Shown: in pieces, positions 39,328 to 39,545 of the stretch
Layout: each line of letters opens with the position of its first letter
Position numbering within the stretch: position 1 is the first letter of the stretch
Assembly: GCA_041191405.1 (NCBI GenBank)
Contig: JBEEOW010000001.1
Coordinates: forward strand, 3,001 to 67,000
Origin: Bacteroidota bacterium
GTDB taxonomy: Bacteria; Bacteroidota; Bacteroidia; Cytophagales; UBA9547
DNA length: 64,000 nt
Reading direction: 5' to 3'
Notes under the pieces: model-generated
Told to the model about the DNA's origin: nothing
What the model saw: only the letters and a program-made list of their open reading frames with translations
The model's database searches: none
Position numbers and translations under genes: made by a program

Positions 39328-39545
39328 GTGTGAAAAGTAAGATGTTAGTTGTAAAATGTGATTTTGTGAAAAGTAAGATGTATTTTGGGAAATGAGTAAG
39401 ATGTAAAATGTGAGATGTAAAATGTGAGATGTGAAATGAAAGATGTAAAATGAGAGATGTGAAATTTGGAATTACTGATTACTTTTAACATTTCACCTTT
39501 CACTTTTCACTTCTCACCATTCTCACCATTTTAACCATTCACCCC
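39328..39545. repeat. ~220-bp imperfect palindrome made of 7-nt units (GTGAAAT/GTAAGAT arm vs ATTTCAC arm)
   Basis: Left arm 39328-39465 has ~19 units and no C. Spacer is 39466-39487. Right arm 39488-39545 has ~8 units and no G, and it contains the alkB stop codon. Confidence 0.9.

Follow-up and report, generated by a model that had tools for sequence, protein, structure and literature searches.

At the locus analysed here, an alkB-like gene lies upstream of cvfB, both on the minus strand of a 64,000-nt stretch of Bacteroidota DNA (hereafter the window), and the 247-bp spacer between them carries two opposed repeat arrays (Table 1). The same spacer was present without any difference in three other independent assemblies (L001, L003, and L004), and, thus, is not an assembly artefact.

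Table 1. Positions of the genes, repeat arrays, and hairpins considered in the present study (positions refer to the window unless a locus is named).
Feature	Position	Strand	Remarks
alkB-like 2OG-Fe(II) oxygenase gene, 198 aa	39539..40135	-	ORF; Pfam PF13532, E=5.5e-30; stop TGA 39539-39541
cvfB, S1-domain winged-helix RNA-binding protein, 276 aa	38461..39291	-	PF13509 and PF17783
Stop-proximal arm	39488..39545	-	Sense strand G-type, C-free; composition, TRF
Central spacer/loop, 22 nt	39466..39487	.	TTGGAATTACTGATTACTTTTA
Expanded section of promoter-side arm	39350..39465	-	Sense strand C-type, G-free; composition, TRF
Conserved 58-nt block 5' of the cvfB ATG	39292..39349	-	Kept in related lineages retaining alkB upstream
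52-aa ORF within the arrays, judged spurious	39345..39503	-
S4_2-domain gene, 69 aa	54611-54820		PF13275, E=4.7e-23; TGA directly 5' of a G-type heptamer array
Further heptamer array	6470-6499
Further heptamer array	6608-6662
Further heptamer array	12693-12742
Further heptamer array	12893-12938
Further heptamer array	15981-16040
Further heptamer array	24197-24243
Further heptamer array	24962-24986
Further heptamer array	35065-35092
Further heptamer array	35118-35170		95% matches
Further heptamer array	53636-53709
Further heptamer array	54575-54607
Emticicia hairpin	L007 3930-4003
Emticicia hairpin	L009 3925-4003
Emticicia hairpin	L010 3907-4003
Emticicia hairpin	L014 3925-4003
Emticicia hairpin	L016 3895-4003

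Read on the plus strand, the left arm (39328-39465, 138 nt) consists of 57 A, 39 G, 42 T, and no C, and the right arm (39488-39545, 58 nt) of 13 A, 23 C, 22 T, and no G. The C-free run around the left arm (39322-39474, 153 nt) is the longest in the window, in which approximately 4e-7 such runs are expected by chance, and a G-free run (39478-39563, 86 nt) encloses the right arm. TRF (periods 7, 14, 21, and 28) and autocorrelation confirmed that 7-nt units are arranged head to tail in the tract. In the left arm, TRF detected period 7 at 39396-39452 (8.1 copies) and a higher-order period of 14 at 39399-39465 (88% matches), together with periods of 21, 28, and 36; in the right arm, period 7 was found at 39491-39522. 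The initial annotation had described strand-pure arms of heptamers on both sides of a 22-nt spacer. Its composition was as claimed, but the unit structure is less regular, because a 9-mer (TTCTCACCA, 3.3 copies, 39511-39540), and not a 7-mer, is repeated in the outer half of the right arm and several left-arm units are irregular, including one 8-mer and a 14-nt insert, TTTTGGGAAAT. Its description of the tract as the largest and cleanest in the window was borne out for size only, since the array at 35118-35170 is cleaner.

On the sense strand, the promoter-side arm is composed of units such as ATTTCAC, ATCTCAC, ATTTTAC, and ATCTTAC with higher-order periods of 14, 28, and 36, and the stop-proximal arm reads GGGGTGAAT GGTTAAAAT GGTGAGAAT GGTGAGAA GTGAAAA GTGAAAG GTGAAAT. 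The latter contains the alkB stop and six more stop triplets, so that all three frames are covered, and the alkB TGA itself falls inside the terminal unit GGTGAAT, which agrees with the earlier proposal that the array supplies this stop codon. One frame of the C-type arm is devoid of stop triplets, which gives rise to the 52-aa ORF; this ORF matched no Pfam family, and its region was absent or unalignable in other lineages. Strand-pure repeat tracts therefore also need to be considered as a source of spurious ORFs in annotations. A CRISPR array was rejected for this tract, the units of which are contiguous and 7-9 nt long, as opposed to repeats of 23-50 nt separated by unique spacers.

The comparison of lineages rested on exact-protein look-ups. 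In the CvfB protein search, identity dropped from 100% directly to 64% in the next relative, and a CvfB scan of GTDB genomes and JGI metagenomes yielded nothing above 63% identity. The compared lineages share 94-95% nucleotide identity with the window in cvfB, and L002 and L005 encode an identical CvfB protein. The 58-nt block in front of cvfB was conserved in all compared lineages with alkB upstream. L172 has unrelated DNA upstream, and homology sets in approximately 35 nt ahead of the ATG, immediately 5' of TACTTTTG (39310-39317). This motif lies in the 58-nt block and fits the Bacteroidetes -7 promoter motif TAnnTTTG, and we infer solely from its conservation that it is a putative cvfB promoter element; TAnnTTTG was not enriched in the window, and a sigma-70 promoter scan of the window revealed no enrichment either (14 found vs 13 expected). 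The block also contains the heptamers ATCTTAC TTTTCAC. The left arm overlaps it by 22 nt on its promoter side (39328-39349), and these 22 nt are old sequence and not a product of the expansion.

Between this block and alkB, the alleles differ markedly. Four assemblies (L167, L168, L169, and L171) carry (GATGTAA)x2 and GACTTAA followed by AACTGAA AACTGAT, namely, three G-type and two AACTGA-type units, while the corresponding numbers are four and four in L173 and seven and four in L005; unit numbers between L167, L173, and L005 differ in steps of 7 or 14 nt. In L002 and L174, GACTTAA-type units are followed by tandem TAACTGA units (TGATAACTGATAACTGA). Unit types in this spacer have thus been replaced wholesale between lineages that are approximately 5% apart in cvfB. 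Within lineages, the four window-type assemblies were identical to each other, as were the four L167-type assemblies, including assemblies from different samples, which indicates that the tract is not hypermutable on short time scales. The alkB stop of L002 and L174 is a TAG two codons earlier than that of the window, where the ancestral TAG is replaced by TTG (39545-39547), and, as a consequence, alkB is now translated for two more codons, up to the TGA in the first repeat unit. With six alleles and traceable seeds, the spacer provides a clean natural series, in which arrays grow in place, take over a stop codon, and mark an indel junction.

The origin of the window allele may be followed in this series. 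Forward k-mer mapping identified two strings, CTCACATTTTACA and ACATCTTACTTTTCACA, that are single-copy beside the promoter in L002 and recur in the long arm three to four times and two to three times, respectively, and the short arm multiplies a GGTGAAT seed that is found at the stop in L002 and L174. Reverse complementation of the conserved ACTTTTCAC gives exactly the GTGAAAAGT of the short arm. These comparisons show that the ancestral spacer already contained a short quasi-palindrome, with GGTGAAT at the alkB stop and ATCTTAC TTTTCAC near the cvfB promoter, and that, in the lineage of the window, both seeds were amplified in place in blocks of 7, 14, 28, and 36 nt to form the 58-nt and 138-nt arms. 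The suggestion in the initial annotation that the arms became unequal through local amplification was confirmed by the mapping to L002 and L174. The block duplications suggest slipped-strand mispairing as the source of the amplification, and template switching between the arms may have kept the unit families complementary.

The loop motif TTACTGATTAC (39472-39482) belongs to the TAACTGA family and is in the opposite orientation to the AATTACTGAT copies of all other alleles; inverted 10-nt matches (AGTAATCAGT) link it to L002, L005, L173, and L174. The reverse complement of the central segment also aligns better to L005 (score 53 vs 18). Inversion of the whole central segment was nevertheless rejected as the origin of the allele because the long arm consists of forward copies of the promoter-side block and only the 10-nt loop motif is inverted.

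Regarding the secondary structure, the initial annotation had claimed that the arms are complementary and that an alkB read-through transcript could fold into a very long hairpin, and these two claims fared differently. The best ungapped complementarity between the arms scored 16.5 against 8.7±1.3 in arm-shuffled controls (z=6.1), none of the 300 controls was as good, and 9 of 300 within-unit position permutations reached an equal value. Since this complementarity exceeds that of the shuffles, we conclude that both arms are built from a single unit family (GTGAAAT, GTGAGAT) in opposite orientations. The sense transcript had a minimum free energy (MFE) of -42.4 kcal/mol, and approximately 85 nt were unpaired in the MFE structure. 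Against whole-region dinucleotide shuffles, the RNA fold had a z of approximately -3 on both strands, and the value for DNA was -3.5; however, such shuffles destroy the split of G and C into two arms, and the z of approximately -3 is due to this segregation. In controls that keep the split, energies were -37.1±4.4 kcal/mol when bases were shuffled inside each arm (z=-1.2 for the real tract) and -43.4±4.4 kcal/mol when 7-mer blocks were shuffled inside each arm (z=+0.2). As far as energy is concerned, this was the outcome that had been set in advance as speaking against the hairpin.

Across the alleles of the spacer, the fold z ranged from -3.05 in the window to +0.60 in L167, with values of -2.7 to +0.6 in related lineages, and the L167-type allele of four assemblies folds at just -5.5 kcal/mol. 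The fold is weak or absent in related lineages, and, therefore, the hairpin is not conserved; its energy is explained by the composition of the arms. A dedicated hairpin function is not supported by the controls or by conservation. These results also call for caution in annotation, in that long A/U-rich "hairpins" formed by strand-pure repeats beat ordinary shuffles without being a conserved structure.

A terminator had also been envisaged, but no canonical one was found in the spacer: no G+C-rich stem with a U-tract exists there, no Rho-independent terminator was predicted in 39292-39538, and the sole site within 38200-40500 is at 40391-40430. The tract shares with Rho-independent terminators its position past a stop codon and the pairing of a purine-rich 5' arm with a pyrimidine-rich 3' arm, whereas the G+C-rich stem, short loop, and U-tract of the canonical terminators present elsewhere in the window, such as that at 40391-40430, are missing. 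No Rfam family scored above its threshold in the tract; the only matches were below threshold, to hairpin families of eukaryotic miRNAs and snoRNAs, and reflect a generic long stem. Elsewhere in the window, 12749-12795 matched Rfam Acido-Lenti-1 barely above the gathering threshold (37.3 vs 37 bits), among small G+C-rich hairpins between both arrays of the 12693-13007 spacer.

The tract is not the only one of its kind, and the process that shaped it acts across the genome. Period 7 alone was enriched in the window, with 11 arrays (572 nt in total), where third-order Markov simulations gave 0.15; periods 8-13 had no arrays. Among periods of 5-15 nt, 7 was also the commonest across the examined loci of other Bacteroidota (1.05 Mb), at a frequency approximately 10 times lower than that in the window. 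A small set of unit families (AACTC/AACTG core, GTGAAAT, and GACTTAA) reappears across many loci and in other genera, and arrays at different loci have identical multi-unit strings of 20-30 nt in common. Such pairs were noted between 6470-6499 and L175 4860-4889, 6628-6654 and 54577-54603, 12893-12914 and 35147-35168, and 24960-24979 and 54589-54608. Rather than independent slippage, the shared strings would indicate that loci copy from one another or that the repertoire of units is very limited. The alkB-cvfB array had no match of at least 14 nt to other loci.

The arrays also follow the direction of genes. On the sense strand, they are G-type at stop codons and C-type before start codons; when assigned to the nearest boundary, this polarity held at 17:1 in this genome, including all five arrays in a held-out 10 kb beyond the window, for which a MAG with 98-99% identity to the window was used. 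In other Bacteroidota, the ratio was approximately 18:4 by eye and script combined and 6:4 by the automated nearest-boundary script alone, and, thus, either the rule is weaker outside this genome or ORF calls are poorer there. The general composition of spacers was ruled out as the source of this polarity because non-array spacers show no G excess after stops and only a slight depletion of G before starts.

In eight genes of the window, a G-type array begins 0-7 nt past the stop codon, and in seven of these within 0-3 nt. These genes end with TGA or TAG in seven of eight cases vs 13 of 49 for other genes, 36 of which use TAA. The Fisher test (p=0.0045) was computed on six of seven, with the TGA of the small S4_2 gene not counted as such; at 69 aa, this gene is below the 100-aa cut-off of the gene map. 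The arrays appear to supply or replace stop codons. In L002, an array also supplies the stop of cvfB. At this gene end, L002 (2285-2375) and the window (35062-35171 and 38455-38465) differ by a 3.3-kb indel comprising a DUF4249 gene and a TonB-dependent receptor gene. In L002, the junction of this indel coincides with the stop codon of cvfB, which is TAG there and TAA in the window; the junction falls within a heptamer dyad, and the final codons of cvfB share AACT microhomology with the array. Separately, two small minus-strand genes lie between BBP2 and Usp at 61527-62492 in the window and in L177, and are absent from L175 (2254-2576) and L176 (6308-6630), the flanking genes of which are 98-99% identical to those of the window; this difference is a second cassette-type indel.

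The G-type arrays at stops contain 38 stop triplets in the sense orientation vs 26 when flipped, while AACTCTT-type arrays have similar stop counts in both orientations and few NTG triplets when flipped. Richness in stop codons explains the G-type at stops in part only, and the same applies to the content of start and stop codons as an explanation of the polarity as a whole. In our reading, the genetic code acts as a filter on orientation: C is missing from all stop codons and a G is required in every start codon, so that only G-type arrays would persist in contact with a stop and only G-free arrays in front of a start. Stop-touching arrays with only G, A, and T on the sense strand would offer TGA, TAG, or TAA in all frames and, thus, could supply a stop, and G-free arrays facing a start would provide no AUG, GUG, or UUG. 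Selection would then filter the orientation of arrays and not their sequence. The avoidance of AUG near start codons has been described in Bacteroidetes (PMC6847099). If this rule holds, the orientation of arrays is set by stop and start codons, which may be checked across thousands of genomes.

Taken together, the alkB-cvfB tract is, on balance, probably a compound heptanucleotide microsatellite that grew in place under an orientation filter, with no dedicated hairpin element. Growth by independent local slippage does not predict the 20-30-nt strings shared between loci, and this counts against the explanation that we prefer. Further points against it are the complementarity of the arms beyond composition, the partial account that start and stop codons give of the polarity, the lack of a comparable G/C asymmetry in non-array spacers, and the identity of the assemblies within a lineage. 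In a read-through alkB RNA, the arms may pair to form a long, bulged, A/U-rich hairpin with a G-free tail of approximately 85 nt; we regard such a hairpin as a by-product, the influence of which on the 3' end of alkB would be modest at most. The main alternative, which we regard as possible although rather unlikely, is that the tract works as a functional RNA hairpin similar to REP/BIME elements, acting as an exonuclease barrier in read-through alkB RNA, a weak factor-independent terminator, or an insulator of the cvfB promoter. [quoted passage not shown] Furthermore, most dyads in other genera have strongly complementary arms. In five species of Emticicia, a hairpin with a G-type 5' arm forms in the spacer preceding cvfB, starting 5 nt past the stop codon of the gene before it, and these hairpins persist across the species although stem length varies, with 11 bp in L009 and 25 perfectly paired bp in L010 (z=-7.4); L010 differs from L009 by complementary heptamers added to both arms, which selection for pairing explains as well as template switching. 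Against such a function are the energy, which is no better than that of arm-preserving shuffles, the weak or absent hairpin in the same spacer of related lineages, the lack of a U-tract, and the canonical terminators that adjoin other arrays, one after its array (6570-6605) and one before (24262-24292). In addition, the arms of two of the five dyads in the window are not complementary.

Rho loading sites (rut) are C-rich, G-poor, and unstructured, with C residues usually spaced by 11-13 nt. The sense RNA of the tract has a stretch of 153 nt with no G and 28% C, against 15% C in the genome, which exceeds the 60-80 nt or more of C-rich, G-poor RNA looked for in a rut site; it might recruit Rho and end read-through from alkB before cvfB, particularly as approximately 85 nt are unpaired in the MFE structure and no intrinsic terminator is present. 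We nonetheless consider a rut tract very unlikely because short alleles (L167) have no such stretch, C-type arrays also occur upstream of starts in divergent spacers (24962-24986), where there is nothing to terminate, and the C spacing is 7 nt. An array of sites for a heptad-reading factor has also been proposed (PMC4679880; bioRxiv 10.1101/2022.06.06.494920). The factor may bind DNA, or it may bind RNA and resemble S1, cold-shock, or CsrA proteins, as suggested for TAACTGA repeats. Such an array would be consistent with the few unit families at many loci and in other genera and with a polarity that tracks gene direction; however, a specific site should resist the wholesale replacement of unit types seen between lineages, no candidate protein was identified, and no published experiment shows heptad binding, which makes this explanation decidedly unlikely. 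A broader proposal, which we hold to be unlikely, is that heptamer dyads are gene-boundary elements throughout Bacteroidota, built of 7-bp modules with a purine-type arm on the stop and a G-free arm facing the next start or convergent stop, generated or read by a dedicated factor, and serving as 3'-end or intercistronic punctuation and as junctions of cassette indels. Lastly, changes in unit number might alter promoter activity and make cvfB phase-variable. The promoter-side copy number differs between lineages, and heptad number is reported to tune the cholera toxin promoter in Vibrio (bioRxiv 10.1101/2021.05.14.444153); on the other hand, the arrays are located on the alkB side of the conserved 58-nt block, where they do not separate promoter elements, and assemblies of one lineage from different samples are identical, and, hence, such a switch is extremely unlikely. 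A contingency-locus repeat was rejected for a related reason: the tract lies between the alkB stop and the conserved block, neither inside an ORF nor between promoter elements.

Heptamer repeats have been known for decades as the favoured long microsatellite of many bacteria, with no accepted function or mechanism. Among long simple sequence repeats (LSSRs) of bacteria, heptamers are over-represented, occur in inverted pairs, and vary in length among close relatives in Xanthomonas and Nostoc (PMC4692102). The class of long repeats with 7-nt units attributed to Mrazek et al. (2007) includes the cyanobacterial STRR and GGGAATC and GGGGAYT of Xanthomonas and Nostoc, as summarized in later reports (PMC4679880; PMC4692102), and regulatory effects of the Nostoc heptamers have only been suggested (bioRxiv 10.1101/2022.06.06.494920). 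The tract belongs to this known class of intergenic heptamer repeats. It shares with the LSSR/STRR class the tandem intergenic arrangement, the preference for period 7 over neighbouring periods, the variation in length and sequence among close relatives, and inverted pairs that are able to form stem-loops. It differs in its A/T-rich units with one or two G, which do not allow a G-quadruplex, and in its host, an uncultured Bacteroidota with 30% G+C. In the heptamer-repeat literature cited here, we found no description of the polarity, with G-type arrays at stops and C-type arrays before starts, or of the supply of stop codons by arrays.

Arrays of TAACTGA and other heptamers have been reported in Beggiatoaceae, Cyanobacteria, and five Bacteroidetes, and the spacers of Gramella, Aequorivita, and Elizabethkingia contain heptamer arrays that are absent from their nearest relatives (PMC4679880). 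As in these repeats (MacGregor, 2015; PMC4679880), alleles L002, L174, L005, and L173 have tandem TAACTGA or AACTGAA/AACTGAT units in the forward orientation upstream of cvfB. The window differs in that it keeps one inverted TTACTGATTAC among units of the GTGAAAT type, instead of the two or more tandem copies by which these repeats are recognized, and in that its repeats lie 37-170 nt upstream of the start behind a putative promoter and not at the start. Its TAACTGA-family motif is antisense to cvfB and approximately 180 nt upstream, in place of a forward copy near the start.

REPs are conserved palindromes of approximately 35 nt that are mobilised by RAYT transposases. The tract resembles the enterobacterial REP/BIME elements in its location at gene 3' ends or between convergent genes, a dyad symmetry that leads to RNA hairpins, variation between strains, and a dispersed distribution. 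It differs in stems that are made of 7-nt modules and in the alkB-cvfB array having no string of at least 14 nt in common with other loci; location and the potential for an RNA hairpin thus correspond to REP/BIME, but the dispersal of the same unit does not. Distinct from the heptamer arrays, a G+C-richer hairpin element of approximately 60-120 nt (GCGAAAA..CTTTAC.GTTGCTGAGC..GTCGAAGC..GTAAAG..TTTTCGC), which is often paired, is dispersed at 10704-10790, 16180-16300, 17853-17972, and 40186-40312 as well as at L175 3470-3590 and 5690-5790, and looks like a MITE-like or REP-like intergenic family. The window also contains a 419-bp tandem duplication (43339-44183, 2.0 copies, 91% matches) over three consecutive ORFs with GTG starts, followed by a 33-nt tandem repeat at 44230-44316 (2.6 copies).
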